Below are positions 1 through 48,527 of a stretch of DNA of 64,000 bases, one piece after another. This stretch comes from Chrysomallon squamiferum. Taxonomy: Eukaryota > Animalia > Mollusca. Both the position numbers and the translations under genes were made by a program. The stretch's first letter is position 1. The number at the start of each line of letters is the position of its first letter. The stretch covers positions 10,664,001-10,728,000 of the forward strand of contig CM022672.1 of the NCBI GenBank assembly GCA_012295275.1, in the 5' to 3' direction. Under the pieces are notes generated by a model, which did not search any database, had not been told where the DNA came from, and saw only the letters and a program-made list of their open reading frames with translations.

Positions 1-522
1 TTTATTTTTTATTTATTTATTTTTTTTTTTTTTTTTTTTTAAATATAAAATCTTTCGTTTTTATTTTTATATTTCAATTCATTTTATATACATTTTATAT
101 TTTATAATTTGTTTTATTTTTACTTTTTTTTAATTATATCATTTTTTTTTTTTAGTTATATCATTTCACTTTATTTCGTTATATATATATATATATATAT
201 TTATGAATTCAATTTTTTTTGGGGGGCATATTTTATACTATATTTTCTAATTTGCAATTTCTTATTTTTGCTATATTTTAAAAATGTTATTATCTTGCAT
301 TTTTGTTAATCGTTCCTTCCTTATTATTATTATTTTCTTAATTTGAATTGAATTTAACGTTCATTAACGAATAAATAATAACAATAATAACATTATAATA
401 CTGATGGTGATAATAGATGCTGCTGATGATTTATAGGTAATAATAATAATAACAACAACAAAAAACAACAATAATAATAATAACAATAACAACAACAACA
501 AAACAACAACAACAACAACAAC

Positions 523-563
<41 letters not shown>

Positions 564-603
564 TAATAATAATAATAACAATAATTAGTATTTATTTGAC
601 CAG

Positions 604-738
604 GTTGTGGAAAATGGCTACGAATTTTTTGCCAACAGACATTTAGTGACGGTGTTTTCTGCTCCCAACTACTGTGGTGAATTTGACAACGCTGGCGCCA
701 TGATGTCGGTGGACGAAACATTACTGATACATTTCCAG
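604..738 (+). CDS. PP1: PP1 catalytic subunit (divergent), penultimate coding exon, copy 1; earlier exons presumably lie upstream of the window
   Basis: ccag/GTT...CAG/gtac, 135 nt, translates [45 protein letters not shown]; canonical PP1 is [45 protein letters not shown]. Missed by the ORF track. Confidence 0.95.
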
Positions 739-1035
739 GTACAAAAATTACAGCATACATTTGTCTGGTTCAGTGAGCAATAAAGTCAAACTGTTCTTTT
801 GGTGACATGAAAAAGAAAAAAAAACATTTTGCATACTTTCAGTTAACTATTTCAGTGGCCAATCTTTGTTAATAATAAAGTTCAACAATGCAAAATCAAA
901 TTCATAAGGATGCACAAAGGCTGACAGTAATCTTTATTTCTATATCAAAATTTATTTATCCATTTTTTTTTTTTTTTTTCCATAGAAATGAAAATAAATC
1001 ATGACAGACTGAGTACCTCTTTTCTTTCTTATACA

Positions 1036-1069
<34 letters not shown>

Positions 1070-1544
1070 TGTCATCAACTCGTTTTATTATTAACAAAGA
1101 ATGGCTTTAAGGGTATGTATTTATATTTTCTAATTTCACCTTTTGAACCCGAAATGTTTAAAAATGTAACGTAAAATCTCATTTATACGTGACCAGTTAA
1201 TATATTTACCATTTAAAAAAAAAAATAAAAAATAAAATATTTTTTTATTTTTTAAAATTAATAATCCCTTATTCATTAGATATTCAGTCAGTCTGTATAA
1301 AGCTTATGTTTGCATTATGTTTAATCTTATTTCCAGCCTGTTTGTGTGGGAGCTTATTAACATAACCAAACAATTAAATTTCACATTAATACAAAATACA
1401 GTTAATGATACTAAATTTTTATTATTTTAAAAATAAACATATTTTCTTTCTTTCATTATTTATTTATTTATTTATTTTCTATGTTTATTATTATTATTAT
1501 TTTTTTTTTTTTTTTTCTAAAGCACAGTTTTCTTCACTTTTCAG

Positions 1545-1643
1545 ATTCTGAAGCCGTCGGAGAAGAAGATGAGATACAACTACGGAGGTCTGTTGTCGGG
1601 GAGACCGGCCACGCCCCCAAAACAGCTGAAGAAAAACAGCTGA
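1545..1643 (+). CDS. PP1: PP1 catalytic subunit, terminal coding exon, copy 1 (PP1-beta-like tail)
   Basis: ttttcag acceptor, phase 0, [32 protein letters not shown]; resembles PP1-beta [26 protein letters not shown] and keeps the TPP Cdk site. The ORF-track reading ([10 protein letters not shown]...) is the wrong frame. Confidence 0.93.
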
Positions 1644-2193
1644 AGAAAAAGAGAAAACTGAGTGAAAGAAACAACACGTCAAAAAGATTAACAACAAAAA
1701 CAACAACCGGGGGGAGCAGAGATGTGCACCGATCACAACAAAGTCAAAGTGTTTTATGAAAGTCGTGAGGGAGTTCTTCCATCAACAGCCGTATTTGTTT
1801 TAATCATGTCAATGTTTTAATTGTCAAACAAAAATAACACACCAGATTCTTGGTCGCTGCATTTGGAATTCTAACGTTCGCTGTTGATGACTGATTTCGT
1901 TTTTTTTTTACGTTATATAGGTGTGTGTGTTTCATAAGTTTGTTTCTCGAAATTACGTTGTTATTTTTGTGTTTTTTTGTGTTTTTTGTTTTTTTGTTTT
2001 TGTTCTTTGTACGAATGTTTAGAATTCTTAACAAGAAAGAATTATGTTTAAGGCAAGAATACAAGTTCTTACTAGGCTTGGGTTTTGAGACTTTTTGGTA
2101 TCCTTAATTAATTGTCAGAAAGTTGCCATGAAAATCAAGTTTTATATATATGTTTTGTATATATTATAAATGTTCATTTTTGTATATATTGTG

Positions 2194-2199
2194 AATAAA
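2194..2199 (+). terminator. Candidate polyadenylation signal of the PP1 gene
   Basis: AATAAA about 550 nt after the stop, followed by GT/T-rich sequence; present in both copies. The motif is common in AT-rich DNA. Confidence 0.35.
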
Positions 2200-2270
2200 G
2201 GTCTTGTTGACTTTGTAATTCATAACTGAAGTGTTTCCTGAGTGTGTGTTGTTATCTTTTGAAAAGCTCA

Positions 2271-2305
<35 letters not shown>

Positions 2306-3083
2306 TCATACATACATGAACAGCAGATAACACACACAATGAATAAGTTTGAGGTGTACCTAAGTTGGAACATGCAAACAACAACAACAACAAAAATAAC
2401 ATTAGCAAAGGCAATACCAGTAACAACAAAGACAACAACAATAATAATAATAAATTTAGATGTTCAAAGGCCGCTGTTATCCCATCTTTGTCCTACTATA
2501 TTTATATTTTATAAACTGTAAAATTTAAGAAATAAAATAATACAAAAATTTAAAAAAAAAAAAGAGGAAAATTAACATTTAATTTCTAAGACTGTTTTAA
2601 CAAAAATTAGCAGGTTTGCCACTTTTTATGAACCAAAAATAAAAGAAACCTTGCTGCAAGACATAAAAGTGTAATTAGTTCGCAGAAGAGTTTAAAAATT
2701 ACAAAATATTAGTAGCAAGAAAAGACAGATGATAAAAATGCTCTTGTGAGATTAGATTGTTTGAACGTTGTTTTTAAAACCAGTAATTTAAAAATGTTAT
2801 TAGCAAAGCTTAAATATAACATATAAAAGTAAGAGTTAATAATATAAAGTGTTAGTGTCGTTATAAATAATAACAAAACGTAAAGGAAAAAGATTTTGGA
2901 AACTAAATAATATTATGTATGTTTTATATATGTATATGTATATACAACCTCTTTTACTATTAATAATCATTAAAACAAAGTATGTATCCTTATTTTAATG
3001 AGTAATAATAGAAAAAAAAAAGATTGTAATAAATAAACTAGAATAACTGCTTAACTATCGTAAAGATGTGAAATGCTGAAAAC

Positions 3084-3126
<43 letters not shown>

Positions 3127-3247
3127 CAGGGTTTGGTAGTTGTTTTTTTATTTTTTGATTTTTAGTTTTTATTTGTATATCTATATGTGTATATATATAT
3201 ATATATATAAATTAATTTTATTTATTTAATTATTTATTTATTTTTTT

Positions 3248-3278
<31 letters not shown>

Positions 3279-4328
3279 TTTTTTTGCAATGAAGTTTTGG
3301 GAGTTTTAAAAATATAAAATAATTTTTGCAATTATCATTTTTTTATTTTAATTTTTAAATTATTATTTTTATCTATTTTTTTTATTATTATTTTTTATTT
3401 CATTTTATTTTATTTTTATGATATTAATTATTTTATTTAAACTAAATAACAGCCAAGCTAAAGAATAATAAATAGAAACATTTGGGCTAAATTTTTAACT
3501 CTGAATCACAATAAACCATAATGCTTATTAATCTTTTGTAATATAATATTAACAGGTGTTAATTAAACGTCTGTTACCATTCAAACACTATTAAATTTTT
3601 TTTTTGGTTACAGATTAATTTATGGTTATAATTTTTAGATCAACACTGTTTGCTAATCCTTCTCAGTATGTTTCCAATTTATCTAGCAGCCTTCTGATGC
3701 CCTGCACACAAAAGGTTAACTCTTTTTAATAACAAAACTAATTTTTCCGACTTATAAACCAGTCCTATGAAGATACTGGGTGTAATTCCTCATAATCTGA
3801 ATCAGTACAAATCCCATATTGAGATATGTAAAAATAATGTACAATAAAATCAGTTAACAGATATAAATTATGTTCCTGTCGAGGGTTCCAGTTATTGTAT
3901 ATTAAATAGCAATAGCCATATTTCCTATTTCCCATTATAAGTAACCATAATTCTTCCATGGGTGCCTCCTAATAAGTCATGGTTAGCAGAATGACCTAAA
4001 ATACCTTTTGTCTCCATAGATGGGTCTCCTGCCCATATGGCTTACTCCCATTTGGTTGAATTCCCACTTGGTCGAAGTGCTAAAACAACAACAGTGGTCT
4101 TACTGACATGCATGTTGTTACCTCAGTCAGTATAATGAACTGTTCCAGATTATTTGGAAACCGATTATTATTGTATAGATGGCGTGGATGTCACTTATCA
4201 CATAAAGTATCCAAATATGACAAATATCGAAATAATCCATGTACTGTAAATGACTAAAAAAAAGAAGGTATTCATCTAAAAAAACACACCATTTTCTTAT
4301 ATACTCAAGAGGCCACGAAGAACATATA

Positions 4329-5220
4329 CAGTATACCCTCACCTATTCGCGGTTCCCCATTCGCGGCCCCGCATATTCGCGGGTTAGGCTCTTAACCCTA
4401 TCGCATCGTATGCTGGTATACCAGGCTAGCGTCATAACGTCATAAAAACAAATGCTCGGTAAACCGGGTTTTTGTAGGTCATAGAGACTTAAGTGCCTGA
4501 AGAGTAGGAATAATTACCTAAAGTGCTGTAAAGCAGCAGCTAAGCTGTGCCATACTGTACATTAGTGTTATCATCATCATCGTATGGCACTGCAAATTTC
4601 ATCGTCATTTTATTATCATTCATTATTGGTGACAGCACAAACAATATCAAATTTTTTCAATTATTATTGCAATACAGTACGTATTTTTTTATAAATGCAT
4701 ACACTGTATGTACAGTGCATATTTTTTGTGACCGTGTATTAATAATGTTTTTAATTGCATATTATTACTGAATTGTATTATTATTACCTGAACTGTGCGT
4801 ACTGTATTTATCTGTCTGTTTGCCTTTAAATTTGTTCCACTTTCTGTCAATTCTAATACATATGTTGTACGCATAGAAAATGACTTTACGGTACAGTAAT
4901 ACAGTATCGGTAACTATGCTATGCGGTGTTACTGTCCTCCTGTACTTACGTTTCTTTCTGATTAAAATATTGTTTCAGTACAAAATTAAAATGTGTTTAC
5001 ATTATCATTACTACATTAGTGAAATACATAACTGCATGCAATATTACTACATTATTACTGTATTAATGAGTAAGAGTGTCTTTAGAAAGTGTTTGGGAAG
5101 CATTTAGTACCGTATATAATCTCATAATAGACGTTTTAAAACTGCATCCAATATTCGCGGTTTTTCGCTATTCGCGGGGGGGTAAAGAACGTAACCCCCG
5201 CGAATAGCGAGGGAATACTG
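4329..5220. mobile_element. Non-autonomous Tc1/mariner (Tigger/pogo-like) element, 892 bp, TA target-site duplication
   Basis: TA|CAGTATACCCTCACCTATTCGCGG ... CCGCGAATAGCGAGGGAATACTG|TA imperfect TIRs; the empty site aacataTAttggt is seen in the other copy at ~14834-14846. Confidence 0.9.
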
Positions 5221-5222
5221 TA

Positions 5223-5777
5223 TTGGTAAATAAACAATTGTCCGTCTCTAATGAACATTTGTATATAAACCGAAGCGATGTCAGACACACGAACACCATT
5301 CTCATGATTTGCAATTATTTCTTTCTTAACCTCTACTGTGATACGTTTACACTTTCCACCAGCATTATCGCTTTCACTTTTTCTTTTCAAGGGCGCCATA
5401 TTGGAGAGTGTATGATAAAAAAAATATACACATAAAAGCAACATTACTTTAAAAAAGGCGAGCGAACAATCTCAATGCAAAAATCTATTAAGCTGCAACT
5501 GCGTATCGAAGTCTAAAGGCCCTAATTCTTGCTATATATTTGCTTTAGGGCATGCCTATAATCCTTACTTTGACCTCGGTTTTGATGTAAGCATATATTT
5601 TTATCTTTACTAGATGTTGACGTCAAAACCGACGTCAAAAGAAAGCTTGTTATGACGCGTCGCTGTAGTTCGTAACTCGGAACTTTGTTCGTAAACCGAG
5701 ACAAAAACTGCCCAAGATCACGGTTTGTAATCCGATTTGTTCGTACTTCGAGGGGTTCGTAACCCGAGGTTCCTCTG
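5223..5777 (-). mobile_element. Tigger/pogo-like transposon remnant (5' TIR plus N-terminal HTH of transposase)
   Basis: Minus strand begins TA|CAGAGGAACCTCGGGTTACGAAC and encodes MAPLKRKSESDNAGGKCKRITVEVKKEIIANHENGVRVSDIASVY, typical of the CENP-B/psq HTH start of Tigger transposases; truncated. Lower boundary approximate. Confidence 0.8.
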
Positions 5778-7013
5778 TACAGAGTTTTATTCACAAAAGG
5801 CCACGGAGAAACTATGAAAAACTATGAAGAGGCCATGTTCATTACATAAACAGATAATCAGATTTATATATATTGATAAATAAACTATTGTCCGTCTATA
5901 ATCAAAACTTGTATGAACACGAAGAGGCCATGTTTATTACATACAGAGGTAATCAGAAGAAAAAAATACGAACAAAAAAAATATATATACATCTGAAAAA
6001 TAATAATAAAAATAAAAATTACATATTCACTGAAATAAGTTTATTTAATTTCCGAAACCCTTTGCAGACCATCTTTACGTTCGTTAGACAACACTGCAAA
6101 AAAATCCGGTTTTAAAATCCAAAAATAATAATAAAATGAAATAATATAAATAATAGTAAGAAGTATAACATCAACAAAAAGAACAACAATTATAGTGTAA
6201 AAAAAACAACTACCAAACAATAATAATAATATCCATTTTTTTTTTTTTTTTTTTTTTTTGGTTGGTTTTTTTTCTACAAATTTGTACATATTAGGAAAGA
6301 GGAATACTTTTTTTTTATAATTATTTTTTATATTTCTTTTTTTTTTTTTTTCTTTTTTTCTTTTTATTTGTTTATTTTATTTTATTTTATTTTTTTTTTT
6401 TTGTTATTTTGTTATTATAATCGTCTTCTCTTTTTTTTAATGTGTGTTTTTTTTTTTTTATTTTTAATTTTATTTTAACATACAGAATTTAAAACACAGT
6501 TGATTGCCTTTCTCCACAATTATTTATTATTGTTATTTATAACATTTTAACGCTCGGAAACAAAAGCATATATATAAAATAAAAAGTATCTGAAAAAACG
6601 GGCTGACAAAAGAATTAATCCCGCTTGCCAGTTTCATTTGTTTGTTGGCATTGTTCACTTTTTTCCCCCTGTTTATAGCAACATGTTTAACCATATCTCT
6701 GGGTTGCATTTGGATGTACACAGTAACTTATATTTAAATAAAACAAATAAATATACAGTGTCAAAAAAAAGGAAAATAATCCTGGATCTTCGTAACACAT
6801 AACTAATACCAAGGGCAAAACCAGAGCTGAACAGTTCAACACACAAACCACAGCAGTGTTATGGAAATGCATCTGGCCAGCAATGGAGATAACTCTTCGT
6901 AAAACAAAAAATTAATAATAATAATAATAACTGCTTTTGAATGCAAATAATATTCTCTAATCGTTTATTACGTTTTATTTTACTATTATTATTTAATTTC
7001 TAATTTTTCCCTT

Positions 7014-7080
7014 CTAACATATCTTAGACACCAGTTTCGTTAAGCTATCTTCGTCATCGACATCGTTGTTCGCTGCGACG
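7014..7080 (-). pseudogene. Truncated 3' stub of the SILK/RVxF orphan gene
   Basis: Matches 16616-16682 (VAANNDVDDEDSLTKLVSKIC*); cut at the rearrangement junction, so both docking motifs are absent. Confidence 0.85.
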
Positions 7081-7695
7081 GTATTTGTGTATTTGTTTTG
7101 TATGTAAATAAATAATAAATTAAATAAATGTATTTAGAACGTATTTATATTATTATTATTATTATTGTTATTATTATTATTATTATTATTTTTACACCAT
7201 ATTTACATACCACCTTTTCCATACTAAGTAAGTTCAAGGGTTCTTTACAGTGTAAACTAACGAACTAATCTATAAAAAGACTAGGACATAAACATATTAA
7301 ATAAATGTAAACACAACGTATTTAGAACATCTATTTAGTGAATTATCGTGTATTCGGAAAACTAGCAACTTGATATTTGTGTTACGACAGCAGCAACATC
7401 AATAGTACTATTGCATGATGCCGCTACAACGACTACGGTTACTATTTCAACAATTACTGCTACTACTGGTTCCGCTCTTTTTGCTCCTACTATACTATTA
7501 CTTCCATTGCTGTCGCTGATGTTGCTACCAGTGCAACGTTACTGCTGTTGCTGCTGTTGTACCTTTTATCACTTCTACTACTGTTGCCGTTGCTGTTATT
7601 GCTGCTATACCCCACCATCACCACTACTACGACGACCACCATCAACACCACTACCACCACTAGTACTAATACTACTACTAATACCACCACTACTA

Positions 7696-7751
<56 letters not shown>

Positions 7752-8170
7752 GTTACTACTACTAATAATACTTACCAAAAAGGAAAATAAAACTATCTGA
7801 TCATAATGAATGTAAAGAGCAAACAAAGAAAAGTATGAAACAATCAGAAAGAATGCCGAAAAATCAAGATAATTAAAAATGGCACACATAACGGTGACAT
7901 CAGAAATGACATGGAACAGTGAGTAAGAATAGCACCCTATTGTGCAATTTCCCGCTCCAACCAGTGTGACTCGAAAGATACGTCACAGATGTTTGACTGT
8001 TACATTTAATGGAAGAGATAGCCAAAGGCAAATATGTTTCCTTTATCATAAGCTTAATTATGTCCACAATCAGAGGTTTGAAAACAACCAAATCTCCATT
8101 ATTCACGAGATGATAGGTTAGGACAGAAAATCAATCACGAGCACATTAACAGTATTATTTATTTATTTAT
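7081..8170 (-). repeat. Inverted copy of ~19170-20281
   Basis: Reverse complement match; the ORF track shows near-identical peptides at 7900-8106(-) and 19236-19442(+). Confidence 0.92.
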
Positions 8171-8171
8171 T

Positions 8172-8225
<54 letters not shown>

Positions 8226-9014
8226 GTTATTGTTGTTGTTGTTGTTGTTATTATTATTATTGTTGTTGTTTTGTTGTTGTTGTTATTATTATTATTACCT
8301 ATAAATCATCAGCAGCATCTATTATCACCATCAGTATTATAATGTTATTATTGTTATTATTTATTCGTTAATGAACGTTAAATTCAATTCAAATTAAGAA
8401 AATAATAATAATAAGGAAGGAACGATTAACAAAAATGCAAGATAATAACATTTTTAAAATATAGCAAAAATAAGAAATTGCAAATTAGAAAATATAGTAT
8501 AAAATATGCCCCCAAAAAAAAATTGAATTCATAATATATATATATATATATATATATATAACGAAATAAAGTGAAATGATATAACTAAAAAAAAATGATA
8601 TAATTAAAAAAAAGTACAAATAAAACAAATTATAAAATATAAAATGTATATAAAATGAATTGAAATATAAAAATAAAAACGAAAGATTTTATATTTAAAA
8701 AACAAAAAAAAAAAAATAAATAAAAAATAAATATAAAATAAAATAAAATAAAATAAAGATAAAAAATAATAATAAAACAAAAAATAATAAAACAAAAACA
8801 AAAACAAAAAATAATAAAATAAAAACAAAAACAAAAACAAAAACAAAAACAAAAACAAAAACAAAAACAAAAACAAATAAAAATAAAAATAAAAATAAAA
8901 ATAAAAATAAAAATAAAAACAAAATCAAAATCCAAAACCAAAAACTAAAAACAAATTAAAATAAAAAATAATTTAAATTAAAAATTGTAATAAAAAAAAA
9001 CATGCTACAGAGAC

Positions 9015-9166
9015 CTGGTGAGCTCGACAGATGAGATCGAGGTCGTGTTTTTTCAGGAACTGGGTGACGACGCTTGCACTGAACGTGTAGGACACGCCCC
9101 TGTCGTTTTCACCCCACGAATCCACGTCAGGGTCGGGGTCCGACCACAGCAAGTCACAGAGTAAAC
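9015..9166 (-). pseudogene. PP1: Inverted PP1 exon ([11 protein letters not shown]...RAHQ)
   Basis: ttttag/GT...CAG/gtct, 152 nt, open: (G)[50 protein letters not shown]. No downstream PP1 exon on this strand. Confidence 0.9.
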
Positions 9167-9685
9167 CTAAAACAAACTTTCATTTAACAACGTCATCAAA
9201 CACCACAGTGACACCACCACTACAACAACTACCAGAAATATCACCACCATCATTACTACTACTACTACTACTACTACTGCTACCGCTTCTGCTGCTACTA
9301 ACAGTTTTACTACTACCACCACGCTACTACTGTTACCATTTTTACTACCACTGCTACTACTACTACAACTACTACTACTACTATTACTTCTACTAACATT
9401 ACTACTACTACTACTGTAACTACTATTACAGGTTGAGAATCCTTTATAAAATAAAATAAAATTTGTGTATGAAAAACAGTTAGAGATCTGTAAAATACAT
9501 CTATTTCTGCTGCTTGGAAAAGTTTCGAGATTCGATATTATTAAGGGAACTTTGACCTATAATATTGTTACCATTACTGCTGATTTACTAATATGGCTAC
9601 AGCTAGTTATATTACAACTACTATTGTCCCACAAACAAATTCAATGTATTATTATTATTATTACTACTGTATCTATGAGACGAAC

Positions 9686-9757
9686 CAGAATCTGGAATCT
9701 CTGTAGGTCTTGCAATACGTTTAATCTGATCCAGAGAATTCAAGTCTGGTGACAACC
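9686..9757 (-). pseudogene. PP1: Inverted PP1 exon (GLSPDL...PDS)
   Basis: ttttcag/GG...TG/gttc, 72 nt, (G)[23 protein letters not shown](G); phases fit both neighbours. Confidence 0.9.
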
Positions 9758-10114
9758 CTGAAAAAAAAGAAGTGTAAATCATATAACTAACTAATTAACT
9801 AACTAATTAACTAACTAATTAACTAACTAAACTAAACTAATCTAAGAAAACTAACTTACCTGTCTCACTAGATAACTAAACTAAACTAGTTAACTAACTC
9901 ACTCACTTGTTGTCTAACTAATCTAAACTAGCTTAACTAATTAACTAATCCCTTAAATTAACTCACTAACTCAGTCACTTTATGACTAACTAAGTAACTA
10001 ACAAACTAATTTAATAAATTAAGCAGTGTGAAAAATAATTTAAAGGTAAGAAAAAAAAAATTAAATCTAGGCATTATCGACTAAAAATGAAGTCAATAAA
10101 TAAATAATAATAAC

Positions 10115-10219
10115 CTCCATGACAACAGAAAATTTTGCAGTCAACAATGGCTACGATAGGCATACAGTTGAAACAGTCGGTAAACGTTTTCCATACCTTG
10201 ACACTGTATCTTCTTTTAC
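10115..10219 (-). pseudogene. PP1: Inverted PP1 exon (KRRY...CCHG)
   Basis: tgcag/GT...GAG/gtta, 105 nt, (C)[34 protein letters not shown](G); no earlier PP1 exon (e.g. RGNHE) found on this strand. Confidence 0.9.
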
Positions 10220-10351
10220 CTGCAATACACCTTAAATTAGTTTATTTAAATAATAAATAGATAGACAGACAGACAGACAGACAGACGGAGAGACAGACAG
10301 ATACAAATATTGAAAAATAGATAGATAGAGGTTGACAGATAGATAGGTGGG

Positions 10352-10386
<35 letters not shown>

Positions 10387-10474
10387 AAAAAATTAATTAA
10401 TTAATGAATACAAATAAATAAATAAATAGACAGACAGACAGATAGATAAAAAGAACTAAATAAATAAATTAATA

Positions 10475-10525
<51 letters not shown>

Positions 10526-10659
10526 AAGGAAATACAGACAGATAGATATATAGATATAAATAATTTAAAAATTAAATTAATATAAATAAATAAATAAAGC
10601 AAGAAGGAAAGAAAGAACATAACGAAAAAACAGCCTGCTCCAAGAAAAAAAAAAAAAAT

Positions 10660-10704
<45 letters not shown>

Positions 10705-10842
10705 AAAAATAAAGAAAGGCGAAAAGAAGAAAGAAAGATCAGCGTATGCAGGAAACATGTTTCCGCCCTCAGTAATTACTGTCTCAGAGTAGGTCTGAGA
10801 TCTCTAATTACCATAACAATAATAATAATAATAATAATAATA

Positions 10843-10891
<49 letters not shown>

Positions 10892-10954
10892 TACAACAAC
10901 AACAACAACAAAAACAACAACAACAATAATAACAATAATAATAATAATAATAAC

Positions 10955-11043
<89 letters not shown>

Positions 11044-11089
11044 CAACAATAATAATAATAATAACAATAATTAGTATTTATTTGACCAG

Positions 11090-11224
11090 GTTGTGGAAAA
11101 TGGCTACGAATTTTTTGCCAACAGACATTTAGTGACGGTGTTTTCTGCTCCCAACTACTGTGGTGAATTTGACAACGCTGGCGCCATGATGTCGGTGGAC
11201 GAAACATTACTGATACATTTCCAG
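11090..11224 (+). pseudogene. PP1: PP1 penultimate exon, copy 2 (orphaned; possible alternative exon)
   Basis: Identical to 604-738 with intact splice sites, but its adjacent upstream exons are inverted. Confidence 0.85.
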
Positions 11225-11527
11225 GTACAAAAAACAGCATACATTTTTCTGGTTCAGTGAGCAATAAAGTCAAACTGTTCTTTTGGTGACATGAAAAAGA
11301 AAAAAAAACATTTTGCATACTTTCAGTGTACTATCTCAGTGGCCAATCTTTGTTAATAATAAAGTTCAATAATGCAAAATCAAATTCATAAGGATGTACA
11401 AAGGCTGACAGTAATCTTTATTTCTATATCGAAATTTATTTATCAATTTTTATTTTTATTTTTTTTTTTTTTTTCATAGAAATAAAAACAAATCATGACA
11501 GACTGAGTACCTCTTTTCTTTCTTATA

Positions 11528-11563
<36 letters not shown>

Positions 11564-12078
11564 CATAGAAATAAAACAAATTATGTCATCAACTCGTTTT
11601 ATTATTAACAAAGAATGGCTTTAAGGGTATGAATTTATATTTTTTAATTTCACCTTTTGAACCCGAAATATTTAAAAATGTAACTTAAAATCTCATTTAT
11701 ACGTGACCAGTTAATATATTTACCATTTTTTTAAATTGATTTATTTTTTTATTTTTTTATTTTTTAAAATTAATAATCCCTTATTCATTAGATATTCAGT
11801 CAGTCTGTATAAAGCTTATGTTTGCATTATGTTTAATCTTATTTCCAGCCTGTTTGTGTGGTCAAGGGCTACCTAATTGTGTGGGAGCTTATTAACATAA
11901 CCAAACAATTAAATTTCACGTTAATACAAAATACAGTTAATGATACTAAATTTTTATTATTTTAAAAATAAACATATTTTCTTTCTTTCATTATTTATTT
12001 ATTTATTTATTTTCTATGTTTATTATTATTATTATTATTTTTTTTTTTTTCTAAAGCACAGTTTTCTTCACTTTTCAG

Positions 12079-12177
12079 ATTCTGAAGCCGTCGGAGAAGA
12101 AGATGAGATACAACTACGGAGGTCTGTTGTCGGGGAGACCGGCCACGCCCCCAAAACAGCTGAAGAAAAACAGCTGA
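12079..12177 (+). pseudogene. PP1: PP1 terminal exon, copy 2 (orphaned; possible alternative last exon)
   Basis: Identical to 1545-1643. Confidence 0.85.
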
Positions 12178-12795
12178 AGAAAAAGAGAAAACTGAGTGAA
12201 AGAAACAACACGTCAAAAAGATTAACAACAAAAACAACAACCGGGGGGAGCAGAGATGTGTACCGATCACAACAAAGTCAAAGTGTTTTATGAAAGTCGT
12301 GAGGGAGTTCTTCCATCAACAGCCGTATTTGTTTAATCATGTCAATGTTTTAATTGTCAAACAAAAATAACACAGCAGATTCTTGGTCGCAGCATTTGGA
12401 ATTCTAACGTTCGCTGTTGATGACTGATTTCGTTTTTTTTTTACGTTATATAGGTGTGTGTGTTTCATAAGTTTGTTTCTCGAAATTACGTTGTTATTTT
12501 TGTGTTTTTTTGTGTTTTTTGTTTTTGTTCTTTGTACGAATGTTTAGAATTCTTAACAAGAAAGAATTATGTTTAAGGCAAGAATACAAGTTCTTACTAG
12601 GCTTGGGTTTTGAGACTTTTTGGTATCCTTAATTAATTGTCAGAAAGTTGCCATGAAAATCAAGTTTTATATATATGTTTTGTATATATTATAAATGTTC
12701 ATTTTTGTATATATTGTGAATAAAGGTCTTGTTGACTTTGTAATTCATAACTGAAGTGTTTCCTGAGTGTGTGTTGTTATCTTTTGAAAAGCTCA

Positions 12796-12831
<36 letters not shown>

Positions 12832-14859
12832 TACATACATGAACAGCAGATAACACACACAATGAATAAGTTTGAGGTGTACCTAAGTTGGAACATGCAA
12901 ACAACAACAAACAACAAAAAAAAATAACATTAGCAAAGGCAATACCAGTAACAACAAAGACAACAACAATAATAATAATAAATTTAGATGTTCAAAGGCC
13001 GCTGTTATCCCATCTTTGTCCTACTATATTTATATTTTATAAACTGTAAAATTTAAGAAATAAAATAATACAAAAATTTAAAAAAAAAAAAAAGAGGAAA
13101 ATTAACATTTAATTTCTAAGACTGTTTTAACAAAAATTAGCAGGTTTGCCACTTTTTATGAACCAAAAATAAAAGAAACCTTGCTGCAAGACATATAAGT
13201 GTAATTAGTTCGCAGAAGAGTTTAAAAATTACAAAATATTAGTAGCAAGAAAAGACAGATGATAAAAATGCTCTAGTGAGATTAGATTGTTTGAACGTTG
13301 TTTTTAAAACCAGTAATTTAAAAATGTTATTAGCAAAGCTTAAATATAACATATAAAAGTAAGAGTTAATAATATAAAGTGTTAGTGTCGTTATAAATAA
13401 TAACAAAACGTAAAGGAAAAAGATTTTGGAAACTAAATAATAGTATGTATGTTTTATATATGTATATGTATATACAACCTCTTTTACTATTAATAATCAT
13501 TAAAACAAAGTATGTATCCTTATTTTAATGAGTAATAATAGAAAAAAAAAGATTGTAATAAATAAACTAGAATAACTGCTTAACTGCCGTAAAGATGTGA
13601 AATGCTGAAAACGTTTTTTTTTTTTTTAATTCTATTTGGGTTTTGGGGTTTTTTTTTCAGGGTTTGGTAGTTGTTGTTTTATTGATTTTTAGTTTTTTAT
13701 TTGTATGTATGTGTGTGTATATATATATATATATATTAATTTTATTTATTTAATTATTTATTTATTTATTTTTTTTTTTTTTTTTTTTTTTTGAGAGTAT
13801 GTGGGAGAGTGTTAAAAGGTAATAATTTTTAAATTAGTTTTTATTTTATTTTTTATTATTATTTTTTAATTTTTATTATTATTTTTTATTTCATTTTATT
13901 TTCTTTTTATGATATTAATTATTTTATTTATACTAAATAACAGCCAAGCTAAAGAATAATAAATAGAAACATTTGGGCTAAATGCTTAACTCCGAATCAC
14001 AATAAACCATAATGCTTATTAATCTTTTGTAATATAATATTACACAGGTGTTAATTAAACGTCTGTTACCATTCAAACACTTTAAAAAAAAAATTTTGGT
14101 TACAGATTAATTTATGGTTATAATTTTTAGATCAACACTGTTTGCTAATCTTTCTCAGAATGTTTCCAATTTATCTAGCAGCCTTCTGATGCCCTGCACA
14201 CAAAAGGTTAATTCTTTTTAATAACTAATTCTAATTTTGCCCACTTATAAACCAGCCCTGGTTCTACATCCCTATGAAGATGTTGGGTGTAATTCCTCAT
14301 AGTCTGAATCAGTACAAATCCCATATTGAGATATGTAAAAATAATGTACAATAAAATCAGTTAACAGATATAAATTATGTTCCTGTCGAGGGTTCCAGTT
14401 ATTATATATTAAATAGCAATAGCCATATTTCCCATTTTCCTTTATAAGTAACCATAATTCCCCCTAATAGGTCATGGTTAGCAGAATGACCTAAAATACC
14501 TTTTTTCTCCATAGATGGGTCTCTTGCCCATAGGGCTTACTCCCATTTGGTTGAATTCCCACTTGTCGAAGTGCTAAAACAACAACAGTGGTCTTACTGA
14601 CATGCATGTTGTTACCTCAGTCAGTATAATGAACTGTTCCAGATTATTTGGAAACCGATTATTATTGTATAGATGATATGGATGTCACTTATCACATAAA
14701 GTATCCAAATATGACAAATATCGAAAAAATCCATGCACTGAATGGAGTGATTGTCTGTAATTGACTAAAAACGAAGGTATTCATCTAAAAAAAAAAATTA
14801 AAAATGTTTTTATATACTCAAGAGGCCATGGAGAACATATATTGGTAAATGAACATTTG

Positions 14860-15413
14860 TATATAAAACGAATTGTTCGTAAACCGAATTGTACGTAAAC
14901 CGAAGCGATGGCAGACACCCGAACATCACTCTCATAATTTTCAATTATTTCTCTCTTAACCTCTACTGTGATACGTTTATACTTTCCACCAGCACTATCG
15001 CTTTCACTTTTTGTTTTCAAGGGCGCCATATTGAAAGGGTAAGATAAAAATATATATATATATACACGTAAAAGCAGAAACACTTTAAAAAAGGCGAGCG
15101 AACAATCTCAATGCAAAAAGCTATTGAATTGCAACTGCGTATCGAAGACTAAAGGCCCTAATTAATTATATAAATTTGTTACAGGGCATGCCTATAATCC
15201 TTACTTTGACCTCGGTTTTGACTTAAGCATCTATTTTTATCTTTACTAGATGTTGACGTCAAAACCGACGTCAAAGGAAAGCTTGTCATGACGCGTCGCT
15301 ATAGTTCGTAATTCGGGACATTATTTGTAAACCGAGACAAAAATTGCCCAAGATCACGGTTCGTAATCTGATTTATTTGTGCATCGAGGGGTTCGAAATC
15401 CGAGGTTCCACTG
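14860..15413 (-). mobile_element. Tigger/pogo-like remnant, copy 2
   Basis: TA|CAGTGGAACCTCGG terminus at 15413; MAPLKTKSESDSAGGKYKRITVEVKREIIENYESDVRVSAIASVY. Paralog of 5223-5777. Confidence 0.8.
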
Positions 15414-16072
15414 TACAAAGTTTTATTCACAAAAGAAATTATGAAAAACTATGAAGAGGCCATAAACAGATAATCAAATTTATGTATATTGATAAATAAA
15501 CTATTGTCCGTCTATAATCAAAACTTGTATGAACACCAAGAGGCCATGTTTATTACATACAGAGGTAATCAGAAAAAAATAAAAATAATAATAAATATAA
15601 AATATACATTTGAAAAATAATAATAAAAATAAAAATTACATATTCACTGAAATAAGTTTATTTAATTTCCGAAACCCTTTTCAGACCATCTTTACGTTCG
15701 TTAGACAACACTGCAAAAAAATCCGGTTTTTAAATCCAAAAATAATAATAAAATGAAATAATCTAAATAATAGTAAGAAGTATAACATCAATAAAAAGAA
15801 CAACAATTATAGTGTAAAAAAGAAACAACCAAACAATAATAATAATATCCATTTTTTTTTTTTTTTTTTTTTTTTATTTGGTTGTTGTTGTTTTTTTGGT
15901 TTCTTTGCGGTTTTTTTCTACAAATTTGTACATATTAGGAAAGAGGAATACTTATTTTTTATAATTATTTTTTATATTTCTTTTTTTTCTTTTTTTTTTT
16001 TTTTCTTTTATTTGTTTATTTTATTTTTTTTTTTTTATTTTTTATTTTTTTGTTATTTTGTTATTATAATCG

Positions 16073-16127
<55 letters not shown>

Positions 16128-16615
16128 TATTTGAACATACAGAATTTAAAACACAGTTGATTGCCTTTCTCCACAATTGTTTATTATTGTTATTTATAAC
16201 ATTTTAACGCTCGGAAACAAAAGCATATATATAAAATAAAAAGTATCTGAAAAAACGGGCTTTTTTCCCCCTGTTTATAGCAACATGTTTAACCATATCT
16301 CTGGGTTGCATTTGGATGTACACAGTAACTTATATTTAAATAAAACAAATAAATATACAGTGTCAAAAAAAAGGAAAATAATCCTGGATCTTCGTAACAC
16401 ATAACTAATACCAAGGGCAAAACCAGAGCTGAACAGTTCAACACACAAACCACAGCAGTGTTATGGAAATGCATCTGGCCAGCAATGGAGATAACTCTTC
16501 GTAAAACAAAAAATTAATAATAATAATAATAACTGCTTTTGAATGCAAATAATATTCTCTAATCGTTTATTACGTTTTATTTTACTATTATTATTTAATT
16601 TCTAATTTTTCCCTT

Positions 16616-17047
16616 CTAACATATCTTAGACACCAGTTTCGTTAAGCTATCTTCGTCATCGACATCGTTGTTCGCTGCGACGTTGTTGGTCTGAGACGTC
16701 GACACCGTTGGTGACTTTTTATTCAACGAATTTGGAATCGGGTGACAAGGACTGGCGACGACTGCGATGATTTCAGAGAACCTCACGCGCTTCTTCTGCT
16801 TGGTAAGGAAACTCTTTCCTCTCTTGTTTCGTAGAATGGACTTCAGTTTCTTCGGTATGCAGTCTTTGGCTTTGAGACTTTTGTTCACGCCACCATAGCG
16901 TTTCTTGGGAAGTTGACGAGAAGGAGGCTCTGAGTCTACTGTGACGTTCTCGAGCTGAGACGCTAGCTCCTTCACGCTGTTTTCTCCTATGACGCCGAGC
17001 TTGTCTACTGATGTACTGTTTTGTGGACTGTCATCTTGGTTCCCCAT
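16616..17047 (-). CDS. Orphan 143-aa putative PP1-interacting protein (SILK + RVxF motifs)
   Basis: Non-repetitive, GC-elevated ORF after a tttttttcag acceptor (exon start ~17065): MGNQDDSPQ...KKLKSILRNKRGKSFLTKQKKRVRFSEIIAVVASP...LVSKIC*. Start codon inferred; family not recognised. Confidence 0.75.
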   Translation of the reverse strand: MGNQDDSPQNSTSVDKLGVIGENSVKELASQLENVTVDSEPPSRQLPKKRYGGVNKSLKAKDCIPKKLKSILRNKRGKSFLTKQKKRVRFSEIIAVVASPCHPIPNSLNKKSPTVSTSQTNNVAANNDVDDEDSLTKLVSKIC

Positions 17048-17467
17048 TGATTTAACACTGAACTGCTGAAAAAAACACAAAATAAAACAAAAAACATTTC
17101 GTAACTAAATTAAAAGATAAATGGAAGTACGTTTTAAGTCTAACGCTTTATGAAATTTTTATTTATTTATTTATTTACTTAGTTACTTACTTACTTACTT
17201 AGTTATGAAATGATAATTAAAATAATTAATAAAACTGGTCTCAAACTACAACACTGATAAATAAATAAATAAATAAATAAACAAACAAACAAAGAAAACA
17301 AACAAATAAATAAATAACAGACTGCGTTAAATTAACATGTAAGGAAAATAAATGTATTATTTATTTATTTATTTATTTATTCATTTATTCATTTATCAGT
17401 ATGTTTATTATGGAAAAGTTATAAAAAGAATAATAAAATTAGATACAACGAGTCGATCAAATACTAA

Positions 17468-17510
<43 letters not shown>

Positions 17511-17953
17511 TTTTTACTATTATTTTTATTATTATTATTATTAAAAGATATTTTAGAATAAGGACACGGTAAGAATAAGACAGAATATAAAGGTACATAT
17601 CCCACAGAAAATTATAAACTCCATTAAATAAAATGTTATATGATTCCCATTCCATTATTCACTAGATTTGCTGATATATCTTAAATGTATTTAAATCAGA
17701 TAATTCCAGATTATACTACGGGTTTGTACGCATGTAATGGTAGGTGTAAATATGTATCAAAATATTTTTATATAATAATGGTAATGCACAAGTCCAATTG
17801 TTAAAATATTTGACAGCATTTGAAAACGTTTCATGCGTTGTCGATTTTAAAATTTTAAATTCTTGAAATTCTAGGATTATAATGTAACTTTTTGAAAGTG
17901 AATAATAAATTTAATTTAATAAACATGAATGTGTAAATTAATATTAAGATTAC

Positions 17954-18131
17954 CTTTCATCGCCAGAAAACTTAATGTCCACATGTGACGTCACTGTTTT
18001 GTTCATAGTAATAAAAGATGACAGTACGAGATTTGACGAAACGTATTGTTGTTATGTATCTCAAAACAACTTCGCTCCATTTCAGTTGATCTTGAAATAA
18101 TGCATTTTGATGGCAAGTCCTTTCTGATACA
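17954..18131 (-). other. Candidate 5'-UTR exon of the SILK/RVxF gene
   Basis: Complex sequence bounded by ttttttgttcag and GAAAG/gtaatc on the minus strand; its ATGs do not join the main ORF in frame. Confidence 0.5.
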
Positions 18132-18487
18132 CTGAACAAAAAAACCAAAAAAAACAATGAAATAATATATATATATATATATAAAATTGTTTAATTATTT
18201 AATTGTTGACCGACATGATTATGCTGTAAAATAACGCTGAATGGTACTTAATATGTATTTATAAAAAGAAGCTGACTTCTGTTGTTAAATGAAAATGTAT
18301 ATCTCCGATCGTGAAATTCTTATCTTATTACTTTTGTTTTAAAAATAATAAAAATAATAATAAATAGATAACAGAAAGTAAGATGATAGTGTTTTCAATC
18401 TCAAAATAGACAAAAAGTCACTGGTATTATTAATAAAATAATTGTTATAAATATTAAAACTGATTATTTATCTGTTTACTTACTTAC

Positions 18488-18530
<43 letters not shown>

Positions 18531-19117
18531 TTTTATATATTCATATAATTATTAACGATATTTTTATAACTGATAACATAAGATTATCAATAATATTTGG
18601 ATATTTCTATTTTTATTAATTTCATTAACTGTTAACAATTTTCAGATGAATATTAACAATGTTCTTACGAATTAACTTATTCAGCCAATCAGAAAATGTC
18701 AGATATATAAATTGTTACTGAATCTTTTCACTTAATAACAGAACATTTTATTTATTTATTTTAATTAATGCGATAATTCCTTAATATAAACCTGTTTTCC
18801 TCAAATGAATTATAAATAAACAGAATAGAATAGCATAATATAATGCAATATAATATAATATAATATAATATATTTTAATATAATATAATATAATATAATA
18901 TAATATAATATCCATACAATATAATACGATATAATATAATATCATATTAATAATATAACAAATAAATTAAATTAAATTAATTTAGATTTACAAACGAAAC
19001 AAACAAAAACAAATAAATAACAAAATATAATTAAATTAACTTAAAATAATACTTTTGAATAAGACCTTTTTAGAAAAAAAAGTAATTATAATAATAACAA
19101 CAACAACAACAACAACG

Positions 19118-19170
<53 letters not shown>

Positions 19171-19590
19171 AATAAATAAATAAATAATACTGTTAATGTG
19201 CTCGTGATTGATTTTCTGTCCTAACCTATCATCTCGTGAATAATGGAGATTTGGTTGTTTTCAAACCTCTGATTGTGGACATAATTAAGCTTATGATAAA
19301 GGAAACATATTTGCCTTTGGCTATCTCTTCCATTAAATGTAACAGTCAAACATCTGTGACGTATCTTTCGAGTCACACTGGTTGGAGCGGGCAATTGCAC
19401 AATAGGGTACTATTCTTACTCACTGTTCCATGTCATTTCTGATGTCACCGTTATGTGTGCCATTTTTAATTATCTTGATTTTTCGGCATTCTTTCTGATT
19501 GTTTCATACTTTTCTTTGTTTGCTCTTTACATTCATTATGATCAGATAGTTTTATTTTCCTTTTTGGTAAGTATTAATAGTAGTAGTAAC

Positions 19591-19675
<85 letters not shown>

Positions 19676-19677
19676 AC

Positions 19678-19712
<35 letters not shown>

Positions 19713-20896
19713 TGGTAGTGGTGGTATTAGTAGTAGTATTAGTACTAGTGGTGGTAGTGGTGTTGATGGTGGTCGTCGTAGTAGTGGTGATGGTGGGGTA
19801 TAGCAGCAATAACAGCAACGGCAATGGAAGTAATAAAAGTAACAACAGCAGTGGTAGCAACAGCAGCAACAGCAGTGGAAGCAATAGTATAGTAGGAGCA
19901 GAAAGAGCGGAACCAGTAGTAGCAGTAACTGTAGAAATAGTTGCCATAGTCGTTGTAGCAATAGTACTACTGTTGATGTTGCTGCTGTTGTAACACAAAT
20001 ATCAAGTCGCTAGTTTTCCGAATACACGATAATTCACTAAATAGATGTTCTAAATACGTTATGTTTACAGTTATTTAATATGTTTATGTCCTAGTCTTTT
20101 TATAGATTAGTTCGTTAGTTTACACTGTAAAGAACCCTTGAACTTACTTAGTAATATTATTATTATTATTGTTGTTGTTGTTTGTTTACATACAGACAAA
20201 ATAAACGAGAATTCGCTATAAATACGTTCTAAATACATTTATTTGATTATTTATTTACATACAAAACAAGTACACAAATACCTGAGAAATTATTAAATAT
20301 ACGTTCTAAATTTCTGAATATATTATTTTGTTATTTATTTACACACCTAAAACTCCCCCTAAACTGTTATATCAGTATTTCCACGATTTATTCTATTGCT
20401 ACCTTTGTTTTCAGAGATTTCAGAAACTACATCAAGATTTTACGTATCTTTCTGTCCACTGCATTTTAGCCGGTTCCATTCATAACTGTGTTCCATCTTC
20501 TCTTTAACGTGTAAATGAAAACAAGTATGAAATAACGCTTTGAGTGAAGTGTAAAACTGTATCCTAGGCAACTACGAGTCTCGTAAACAGCAGTCGATAC
20601 GTCAGCCTCTGACTGCACACAGGGATATATAATATATAAAATAAAGTAAGCTTTATACTCCGTTTTGTTAACAAAGCAGAGTAATAAACATTTAACCGCA
20701 AATTAGCTGGTGATAAAACAGCGTGAATAGAAAAGAAATTATTATTTAATTTCGTTGACGTTCCCATTTGAATGCCATTTTTATTAATTTTTTCTTTATT
20801 ACATCCAATTATAATAATAATAATAATTGCGTGTCTGTGCGCGGGTGTTTGAAGAAATGAAACAGATATAAACATTTTCACAGATAGCATGATGAA

Positions 20897-21034: not shown

Positions 21035-22637
21035 TGTTTTCTGTTTCAGTTCTTCTTTTTTTTTTCAATTTTTATTTATTTATTTATTTATTTATTTTGT
21101 TTGTTTTGTTTCACCCACTATTGGTATTATTATTATTAATCAGTTTAATAAATTTCGTTTTATATTCGGTTACGTATCAGCATGAACATTATACAGACAA
21201 TCGGCGCCCGTAATCAACAGCTTGAATTTGCTCGCTTTGCGGAAGCTTTGTACACCAAGAGCAGGCGAGCGTGGACCTACATTCATCTCGCCACATTATT
21301 AAATCGCATGAAAACCTTATCAGTTAATAGAAGTGACATTTTCTGTCCTGTTTGCGCTGTTATTAATTATTTCACAAAGCTTCCGTAAATAACTCTTTAG
21401 ATTAGACACATCAGTTGGCACCGAGCAGAGCGCTTTTCCCGTGCTTTAACCGCGTGATTGGCCGGAATTGTGACAATTGATCAGAGATAACGGTATTCCC
21501 GTTCATTACATATTGCCGCGTTAACAAAAGATACGCGCGGAAGGAAAGGTAATTGAAAAAAAGTACGGGACACCGTTAGGACCACCATTTGACACATTTA
21601 GTTGACATCACGCCGCGTGTATTTTTTATCTTCGTTTTAAAACTGTGTCTTCGGATGTGGGTGAATTGAAGGTTTTCTGTTATTTATTTTATTTCATTTT
21701 ATTTATTTACTCACTCACTTACGTAGCTTTTTTCTTCTTCTTCTTTCAATGTAAGATACCAGTTAATAAACAATAAAACAGAATAACCTCATTAAAGATG
21801 GATAGATAGCAAGTTATCACGTGATATGTGTGTCTGTGTGTATGTTTGTGTATTTGCGTGTGTCTGTGTATGTGTGTGTGCGCGCGCTATATGACAACAG
21901 AATATAAATATAATTTTTAGGAGACACAGAATACATAGATTTACTAAAACTTGATTTAAATAAAAGTTACAATGACCAACTGTCTGAATGCTTTTTGCAC
22001 ATTAGTGTCATTTGATAAGTCTAATGTGAGTCGGAGGGTTTGCAGCAATATCAGTTTCTGTTATACTTTACGTTACCTTTAGTCATTGCTATAACGATAT
22101 AATTTATATAACAGCTATATATTTCAGTTATTACTATAACAGTATATCTTATCTGTTCTTTATATTTACACTACAGTATCCTAAATGTGTGGCGTCTGTA
22201 AACTTACTTCAGTACCATGTACTAAGTCACTGGCTTAAATAAATATACTTCAGCAGTAAATTTACTAGGTCATTGGCTTAAATAAATATACTTCAGTAAA
22301 TATATTAAGTCACTGGATTAAATGATACTTCAATAAACTTACTTAAACACAGGCTTACGTATACTTCAATAAGTATACTTCAATAAGTATACTTCAATAC
22401 ATAAACTTCAATAAATTCACTAAGTCACTGGCTTCAGTAAATGTACTTCAATAAACCCACTTAGTCACTGGCTTCAGTACATTTATTATTTTATGGCTTC
22501 GATAAACTTACTAATTTTTTGCTTCAATAAATACACTTCACTAAATTTTCTTAGTCTCCGGCTTTCAGTAAATATATTTAATAAACTTTACCAAGACTCT
22601 GGCTAGACGTTTATAATTTGTGCTTTGAACGGTGTTT

Positions 22638-25106: not shown

Positions 25107-26632
25107 GATGTTCACACCCTGATACTCACTCGCAGATATTCACAACCTGATACTCACTCGCAGATATTCACAACCTGATACTCACTCGCAGATATTCACA
25201 CAACGATACTCACTAGCTGATATTCACACCCTGATACTCACTAGCTGATATTCACACCCTGATACTCACTAGCTGATATTCACACCCTGATACTCACTCG
25301 CTGATATTCACACCCTGATACTCACTCGCTGATATTCACACCCTGGCACTCACTCGCAGATATTCACAACCTGATACTCACTCGCAGATATTCACACCCT
25401 GACACTTACTAGCTGATATTCACACCCTGATACTCACTCGCAGATATTCACACCCTGACACTCACTAGCTGATATTCACACCCTGATACTCACTCGCAGA
25501 TATTCACACCCTGACACTCACTCGCTGATATTCACACCCTGATACTCACTCGCAGATATTCACACCCTGGCACTCACTCGCAGATATTCACACCCTGGCA
25601 CTCACTCGCTGATATTCACACCCTGGCACTCACTCGCAGATATTCACACCCTGGCACTCACTCGCAGATATTCACACCCTGGCACTCACTCGCTGATATT
25701 CACACCCTGACACTCACTCGCTGATATTCACACCCTGACACTCACTCGCTGATATTCACACCCTGACACTCACTCGCTGATATTCACACCCTGACACTCA
25801 CTCGCTGATATTCACACCCTGACACTCACTCGCTGATATTCACACCCTGACACTCACTCGCAGATATTCACACCCTGATACTCACTCGCAGATATTCACA
25901 CCCTGACACTCACTCGCTGATATTCACACCCTGATACTCACTCGCAGATATTCACACCCTGATACTCACTCGCTGATATTCACACAACGATACTCACTCG
26001 CCGATATTCACACCCTGATACTCACTAGCTGATATTCACACCCTGATACCCACTCGTTGATATTCACACCCTGACACTCACTCGCTGATATTCACACAAC
26101 GATACTCACTAGCTGATATTCACACCCTGATACTCACTCGCAGATATTCACACCCTGATACTCACTCGCAGATATTCACACCCTGACACTCACTCGCAGA
26201 TATTCACACCCTGACACTCACTCGCAGATATTCACACCCTGATACTCACTCGCAGATATTCACACCCTGACACTCACTCGCAGATATTTACACCCTGACA
26301 CTCACTAGCAGATATTCACACCCTGACACTCACTCGCAGATATTCACACCCTGACACTCACTCGCAGATATTCACACCCTGACACTCACTCGCTGATATT
26401 CACACCCTGATACTCACTCGCTGATATTCACACCCTGACACTCACTCGCTGATATTCACACCCTGATACTCACTCGCCGATATTCACACCCTGACACTCA
26501 CTCGCAGATATTCACACCCTGACACTCACTCGCAGATATTCACACCCTGACACTCACTCGCAGATATTCACACCCTGACACTCACTCGCTGATATTCACA
26601 CCCTGATACTCACTCGCAGATATTCACAGTCT
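25107..26632. repeat. Minisatellite, 28-bp unit, about 54 copies
   Basis: GATATTCACACCCT-GA(T/C)ACTCACTCGC(A/T) head to tail; a dimer of related 14-mers. Confidence 0.95.
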
Positions 26633-28845: not shown

Positions 28846-29269
28846 ACGGGTATTCCCACATCGATACCTGCACACACGTAGTACTCATGCACTAACACTA
28901 AGTGACTCTTACTCATACACTGGTAATTCGACTCTCACACACAGGTTCCCTAACCAGGTTGTTCTGTCTTTCTCTGACTTAATTTACAACAGCTTGCATT
29001 GTGACAAAACAGTCGCATCAGTTCACAGTTGACTCAGTGTTGACTAAATATTAGAATTTCCAAGCGAGAAAACGGCACGCACGGCTGTTTGCCAGTGAAG
29101 GGATGTTTGCACATAATTACGTTATCTTCTGCTGTAATTAGTCTATCACGGTGTTAAATAATGTTCTCGTGTTATAGCTTATAGTACGAGGCAGCGTTTT
29201 GATGGACTAAGCGTTATTGCATTATTTTGTTATTAAATGTTAAGCCATGTTGTATGTTTTAGATTACTG

Positions 29270-44895: not shown

Positions 44896-44997
44896 AAGAA
44901 AAAAAAAAAGACAAAGAAAATTATTCTTTTTTCATTTTATTTCAATGGAAAAACCCAGATATTTCGAATAACGTTTTGTTTTCTTTGTGTCTCTCAG

Positions 44998-45153
44998 GTA
45001 GAATTTGCGATCCATTAGCTTTCCGCTCGAGTAACATCGGCGGAAGTAAGCCCAAAGTAGCGACCCCATCTGTCGTCTCGAAAATAGAAGAACTGAAAAG
45101 AAACAACCCAACAATGTTTGCTTGGGAAATACGAGACAAATTACAGAGCGAAG
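44998..45153 (+). CDS. eyg: Eyegone-type Pax gene, coding exon 2 (linker plus RED subdomain)
   Basis: ctcag/GT...G/gtaaa; [51 protein letters not shown]. Confidence 0.95.

Positions 45154-45476: not shown

Positions 45477-45518
<42 letters not shown>

Positions 45519-46584: not shown

Positions 46585-46624
<40 letters not shown>

Positions 46625-47391: not shown

Positions 47392-47422
<31 letters not shown>

Positions 47423-47675: not shown

Positions 47676-47742
<67 letters not shown>

Positions 47743-48447: not shown

Positions 48448-48527
<80 letters not shown>

Follow-up and report, generated by a model that had tools for sequence, protein, structure and literature searches.

Regulators of protein phosphatase 1 (PP1) that combine a SILK motif with an RVxF motif include KNL1, Inhibitor-3 (PPP1R11), Inhibitor-2 (PPP1R2) and RRP1B, in which, as in the protein described here, a short and probably unfolded region carries [GS]IL[KR] upstream of RVxF (PMC10066265, PMC6406801, PMC9813921). 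The RVxF consensus is given as [K/R]x(0-1)[V/I]x[F/W], with MELT repeats as a feature of KNL1 (PMC6406801). In Inhibitor-3 the linker between the two motifs is basic and faces an acidic patch on PP1 (PMC10066265). Here we describe a 64,000-nucleotide (nt) stretch of the Chrysomallon squamiferum genome (GenBank assembly GCA_012295275.1, contig CM022672.1, positions 10,664,001 to 10,728,000, forward strand; hereafter the window), which carries a small gene for a newly found candidate PP1 regulator of this kind and, facing it, a newly found divergent PP1 paralog. Judged from its sequence, the small gene is real, conserved and lineage-restricted, and its product likely docks on PP1.

Duplicates of the catalytic subunit that evolve fast are also described. 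Drosophila PpY-55A, PpN58A, PpD5, PpD6 and Pp1-Y1/Y2 (PMC3137614), together with Nilaparvata PPP1-Y, Y1 and Y2 (PMC7331678), are, like the snail paralog, lineage-specific and found beside conserved PP1s. The snail paralog differs from the Drosophila male-biased enzymes, which are mostly retrogenes, in keeping its introns, in its PP1-beta-like tail and in being less diverged. PP1-like enzymes with a regulator of their own, as proposed for the snail pair, are represented by yeast Ppz1-Hal3 and Drosophila PPY-PPYR1, and we know of neither pair as adjacent genes. Hal3 is stated to make no use of its RVxF-like motif and not to bind PP1c (PMC5562863). A search of open-licence PMC and bioRxiv articles by title and start of abstract returned no paper on an adjacent PP1-regulator gene pair.

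The small gene has codons at 17047-16619 of the minus strand, encoding 143 residues with a computed isoelectric point (pI) of 9.7. Within it SILR (residues 70-73) precedes KRVRF (residues 86-90), just as the original prediction of a small basic protein had it. The two motifs are separated by 12 residues forming a basic linker, resembling that of Inhibitor-3 (PMC10066265). Among the 293 open frames of at least 60 residues in the window, the motif pair in this order occurs once, in the small protein itself, and shuffling the protein reproduces both motifs in the right order in 85 of 200,000 permuted sequences. Loose matches to RVxF are frequent, by comparison, being present in 42 of the same 293 frames and in 8% of shuffles.

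A phmmer search with the small open reading frame (ORF) over 1.84 billion representatives returned two matches. One, a 153-residue protein from an ENA record (P0121), shares 48% identity (E-value 3e-18); the other, rabbit AHNAK2 (P0122, E-value 2.5e-5), was rejected as a homolog, being a repeat match outside the motifs. A profile built from the ORF and P0121 then retrieved, among 206 candidates, P0124, which is LOC121383340 (XP_041369239.1; 157 residues, 43% identity) of Gigantopelta aegis, a neomphaline gastropod and vent snail. The protein had been called an orphan, a description that these homologs overturn. A word-based search with the ORF alone gave 0 of 25 candidates, a false blank since a 48% homolog exists. 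No locus of P0121 or P0124 was confirmed among 234, 173 and 76 pattern matches, which came from metagenome and prokaryote collections and have no bearing on synteny. No paper on the small gene or LOC121383340 was found in full-text searches of open-licence PMC and bioRxiv.

The three proteins share their start methionine and have pI values of 9.3-9.7. SILR is present in all three, satisfying [GS]IL[KR] upstream of RVxF, and every RVxF motif falls within the published consensus (PMC6406801), so that the anticipated conservation of the motifs among relatives was found. The motif block (residues 64-92) is the best-conserved part of the protein, with 23 of 29 positions invariant against 53 of 143 over the whole length, a concentration matched by 3 of 100,000 permutations. 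On this alignment the SILK-to-RVxF block is under selection, which makes a PP1-binding role likely. Residues 21-42 (window 16922-16987, minus strand) form a second conserved block, with 13 of 22 positions invariant and a predicted helix at 24-33; this block fits no known motif and is a candidate site for another binding partner.

No sequence relationship to KNL1, Inhibitor-3, Inhibitor-2 or RRP1B was found in Pfam or with a PDB profile. The family, three sequences of 143-157 residues, lacks the CCC motif of Inhibitor-3 as well as MELT repeats, and the small protein gave no match to Inhibitor-2 or Inhibitor-3. No Pfam family scored above its cut-off; matches to PPI_Ypi1, FERM_F2, TP2, Cep57_CLD and Efg1 all lay below and were rejected, that to Inhibitor-3 (PF07491) scoring 12.9 bits against a cut-off of 27, in one of three members and at residues 116-143, outside the motifs. 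The search of the PDB with the small-protein profile returned 0 matches. A structure model gave a predicted local distance difference test (pLDDT) score of 55.8 and a predicted template modelling (pTM) score of 0.16, values that the shallow depth of a three-sequence alignment alone can produce.

A splice acceptor stands 18 nt ahead of the small-gene ATG, and the predicted 5' exon, once spliced, places an in-frame stop just upstream of it. Open frames in 19075-20282 were ruled out as upstream coding exons, because both homologs share the start methionine and the predicted upstream exon supplies this stop. A CpG-rich segment with a CCAAT box at 21150-21620, ca. 3 kb upstream of the predicted 5' exon, is a possible promoter. 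Two RNA runs cover the sampled words of 16000-18200 to 0.43 and 0.37, near the 0.34-0.50 that the predicted exons would account for, which suggests transcription of the small gene; it is not taken as proof, because two runs guessed to be DNA hold the same share (0.41 and 0.40).

The enzyme facing the small gene is represented by five exon types, all open and with AG/GT ends, the donor after residue 249 being a weak GTCTCT (residues are in PP1-alpha numbering, anchored on PDB chains and on P0009). It keeps H173, W206, R221, H248, Y272, SAPNYC and the C-terminal TPP, and thus carries the sequence marks of a PP1-type catalytic subunit (H173, R221, H248, Y272, SAPNYC). Over 154 columns its identity to seven animal PP1s is 77-81%, against 85-97% among those seven; an eighth, P0018, at 62%, was set aside as an aberrant model. 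Its tail is 63-70% identical over 27 residues to insect PP1-beta-type proteins (PPP1CB/flapwing), with 70% to the moth PP1 P0013, while the four catalytic-domain exons reach 77%, against ca. 90% among PPP1CB/flapwing orthologs, and differ in the pocket and on acidic surfaces. Intron positions and exon sizes of 105, 72, 152 and 135 nt presumably fit PPP1CB as well. By these sequence measures, the enzyme is a PP1-beta-like paralog that has diverged and retains introns.

The RVxF pocket comprises I169, L243, F257, L289, C291 and F293, with C291 lining both sub-sites (PMC3387161). On that list the paralog keeps five of six residues and alters only C291 (C291I), within a segment, residues 289-294, that reads LLIHFQ in place of the ordinary LMCSFQ. 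The groove therefore does differ, as had been claimed, over a narrower part than was implied. Rare changes were counted in the best 120 of 7,976 matches, using those aligned to each exon at 50% or more. At position 291, Ile was present in 0 of 79 other PP1s and Cys in 78 of 79; S292H, Q262H and D253N were each present in 0 of 79, M290L in 1 of 79, E167C in 1 of 60 and G228S in 1 of 119. The comparison PP1s are mostly without names and many look non-animal; the known insect male-biased paralogs are not among them, so the rarity of C291I does not extend to fast-evolving duplicates. The paralog has lost two acids that touch basic residues of Inhibitor-3: E167, in the acidic patch separating the SILK and RVxF pockets, and D253, in an acidic groove (PMC10066265). 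Without them a basic partner would bind less tightly, not more, and the loss of E167 would if anything loosen the contact with the linker. C291I is predicted to retune regulator binding. In the small protein no change matching C291I was seen, the RVxF Val and Phe and the SILR being canonical in all three species, and co-evolution of the pair is so far unsupported, as are its proposed co-expression, germ-line specificity and dedicated partnership. Alterations of the small protein outside the core motifs may still compensate C291I.

The layout of the locus is doubled and partly inverted. The small-gene stop lies 4,438 nt from the stop of the second PP1 copy (12175-12177), tail to tail, which agrees with the convergent orientation and the distance of ca. 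4.4 kb claimed before; the stop of the first copy lies 5,371 nt from a stub of the ORF, again convergently. In self-alignment, 439-7080 is repeated at 10925-16682, and in both copies the 3' end of PP1 faces the 3' end of the small gene. The original prediction took a PP1 gene for the partner, which stands insofar as a divergent paralog is present and fails in that the window holds no intact gene: the last two exons occur twice on the plus strand, with three minus-strand exons (10219-9015) in between, and no exon for residues 1-139 was found in the 64 kb. Copy 2, beside the whole ORF, is unspliceable as assembled, and copy 1 adjoins the 21-codon stub. Junctions are placed at 7080 (unique sequence), near 8200 in (ATT)n and near 10870 in (AAT)n. 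Between the copies 0 of 237 exon nt differ, with 0-1% divergence in most flanks and 2.7-8.9% in three middle blocks. This patchy, allele-like divergence, and the position of two of the three junctions in AAT/ATT repeats, point to two haplotypes merged in the assembly as the most likely origin of the layout, in which case the true locus most likely has a single PP1 gene opposite a single small gene. The 4326-5223 element would be an insertion polymorphism if the two copies are alleles. Because the tail-to-tail order occurs twice, the adjacency was not created by the junctions.

The reading that we favour, at slightly better than even confidence, is that the small protein docks on PP1, the ordinary form no less than the paralog, the adjacency being incidental or a shared expression neighbourhood and the haplotypes merged. 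The unfolded protein would occupy the hydrophobic pocket with its RVxF motif and the SILK pocket with SILR, its basic linker passing over the acidic patch between them, as in Inhibitor-3. It would serve as an anchoring or competing subunit keeping PP1 at a site, likelier than as an active-site blocker, because no Inhibitor-2 helix or Inhibitor-3 CCC motif was seen. Binding of ordinary PP1 at least as well as of the paralog is likely since the motifs are ordinary and nothing directs them to the variant pocket. The paralog would have arisen by duplication at the DNA level, because its introns are kept, followed by fast evolution like that of male-biased insect PP1 paralogs. Its adjacency to the small gene is most likely incidental or due to a shared expression neighbourhood; testis genes cluster in mouse (PMC548148), and, by analogy, the two genes could plausibly have come to lie together through common expression in the germ line, with no private partnership.

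Several points weigh against this reading. The conservation counts rest on three sequences only, and the exchange of Cys for Ile, a hydrophobic change, may have no effect on binding or may suit certain partners. The adjacency is present in both copies in the window. A genome is taken to contain 20,000 genes. With that number and ca. 200 regulators (PMC9813921), the chance of finding a PP1 partner beside a PP1 gene is roughly estimated at 6% for any regulator and perhaps below 1% for the two-motif class. These low odds per genome are why a dedicated linked module is retained, as a possible but improbable reading. The paralog would here have dropped the general regulators through C291I, M290L, S292H, E167C and D253N, and its immediate neighbour would be its own co-expressed targeting or inhibitory subunit, perhaps in the male germ line; put most fully, and with the same low confidence, this would be a PP1 holoenzyme specific to neomphaline snails, with rebuilt pocket and acidic surfaces, a private SILK/RVxF subunit and a germ-line role. 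The rare changes do gather on regulator-contact surfaces (PMC3387161, PMC10066265), the small gene has so far been seen in this lineage only, and male bias is known from divergent PP1 paralogs of insects (PMC3137614, PMC7331678), clustering of testis genes from mouse (PMC548148). However, the partner motifs are canonical with no compensating change, convergent genes have no common promoter, and no ortholog of the divergent PP1 is present among the best 120 of 7,976 matches (the best at 88% over one exon, none a named mollusc). In addition, some 250,000 windows were scanned, among which chance neighbours are expected.

The layout and the composition of the conserved block each allow a further reading. 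A real, recent template-switch rearrangement is possible in place of merged haplotypes, and the paralog could then be a decaying or broken duplicate under relaxed selection, the small gene using PP1 encoded elsewhere. The inverted exons of copy 2 and its missing N-terminal exons as assembled, the junction in unique sequence, the private 0.9-kb insertion of copy 1 and the weak donor after residue 249 would fit such decay, whereas the open exon types with AG/GT ends, the retention of H173, W206, R221, H248, Y272 and TPP, and a protein divergence of ca. 20% without stop or frameshift, which points to long selection, speak against it. Furthermore, an intact copy 1 may extend upstream beyond the window, because bases 3-560 match the intron beside the inverted exons. 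We consider a broken duplicate unlikely. The conserved block is also sufficiently basic for a nuclear signal or for binding nucleic acid; on such a reading it would be a nuclear-localisation, chromatin- or microtubule-binding segment, the motif match incidental and PP1 irrelevant. The high pI of all three proteins and the frequency of loose RVxF matches agree with this, as does a weak, sub-threshold match of P0124, one of three members, to transition protein 2 (E-value 0.019). It is nevertheless quite doubtful, given that I, L, V and F, the hydrophobic residues of the two motifs, never vary, that the motifs follow the order of KNL1 and Inhibitor-3, and that chance seldom yields both of them.

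As matters stand, each of the two parts is of a known kind, and what links them is one adjacency within a scrambled assembly. The small protein is of interest as a candidate PP1 regulator that is restricted to this lineage and has clear-cut motifs, and the paralog as a naturally occurring C291I change in the pocket; each could serve as a reagent for studying the change of PP1 docking specificity after duplication. Should the pair prove linked and selective, it would be one of the rare instances among animals in which phosphatase and regulator are passed on together; a dedicated holoenzyme would be a natural experiment in rewiring the near-invariant PP1 docking code. The features of the locus are collected in Table 1.

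Table 1. Positions of PP1 exons, small-gene elements and rearranged segments in the window.
Feature	Positions	Strand	Remarks
PP1 exon, residues 250-294, copy 1	604..738	+	AG/GT ends; D253N, K260N, Q262H, L266V, M290L, C291I, S292H
PP1 last coding exon, copy 1	1545..1643	+	PP1-beta-like tail of 32 residues, TPP site, stop 1641-1643
Insertion with 15-nt terminal inverted repeats	4326..5223		Copy 1 only; likely non-autonomous DNA transposon
Small-ORF stub, last 21 codons and stop	7014..7080	-	Cut at junction 7080; no substitution relative to the whole copy over 89 nt
Inverted copy of 19075-20282	7081..8267	+	Shares 1 nt with the ORF stub at the join
Inverted copy of the PP1 intron at 3-560	8179..8733	-	Junction within (ATT)n repeat
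PP1 exon, residues 199-249	9015..9166	-	Inverted relative to 3' exons; W206, D208, R221, D242, L243, H248 kept
PP1 exon, residues 175-198	9686..9757	-	Inverted
PP1 exon, residues 140-175	10115..10219	-	Inverted; E167C; I169, H173 kept
(AAT)n array with third junction	10813..11071		Strand of PP1 exons switches back
PP1 exon, residues 250-294, copy 2	11090..11224	+	Same as copy 1 over all 135 nt
PP1 last coding exon, copy 2	12079..12177	+	Stop 12175-12177
Small-protein coding exon (single) and stop	16616..17047	-	143 residues, basic, probably disordered; homologs P0121, P0124
RVxF motif KRVRF, residues 86-90	16778..16792	-	KCVRF in P0121 and P0124
SILK-type motif SILR, residues 70-73	16829..16840	-	Same in 3 of 3 sequences
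5' untranslated exon of small gene, predicted	17954..18131	-	AG/GT ends; read from sequence

The DNA of the window is AT-rich and rich in microsatellites. A Pax gene lies at 44990-49062 (plus strand; Pfam PAX, E-value 8e-18), with paired-box exons at ca. 44990-45160 and ca. 45930-46240 and the end of a homeodomain at ca. 48745-49062; its RNRAAERAA stretch suggests what we take to be the eyegone or Pox-neuro type. Some 3.7 kb of a 28-nt minisatellite occupies 25107-28860, with a GC content of ca. 46% against 30% around it, adjoined by a tandem repeat of ca. 66 nt at 29278-29890. At 53277-55700, TTAGGG-like arrays of degenerate sequence stand head to head in opposite orientations and are candidates for interstitial telomere-like or transposon-derived sequence.

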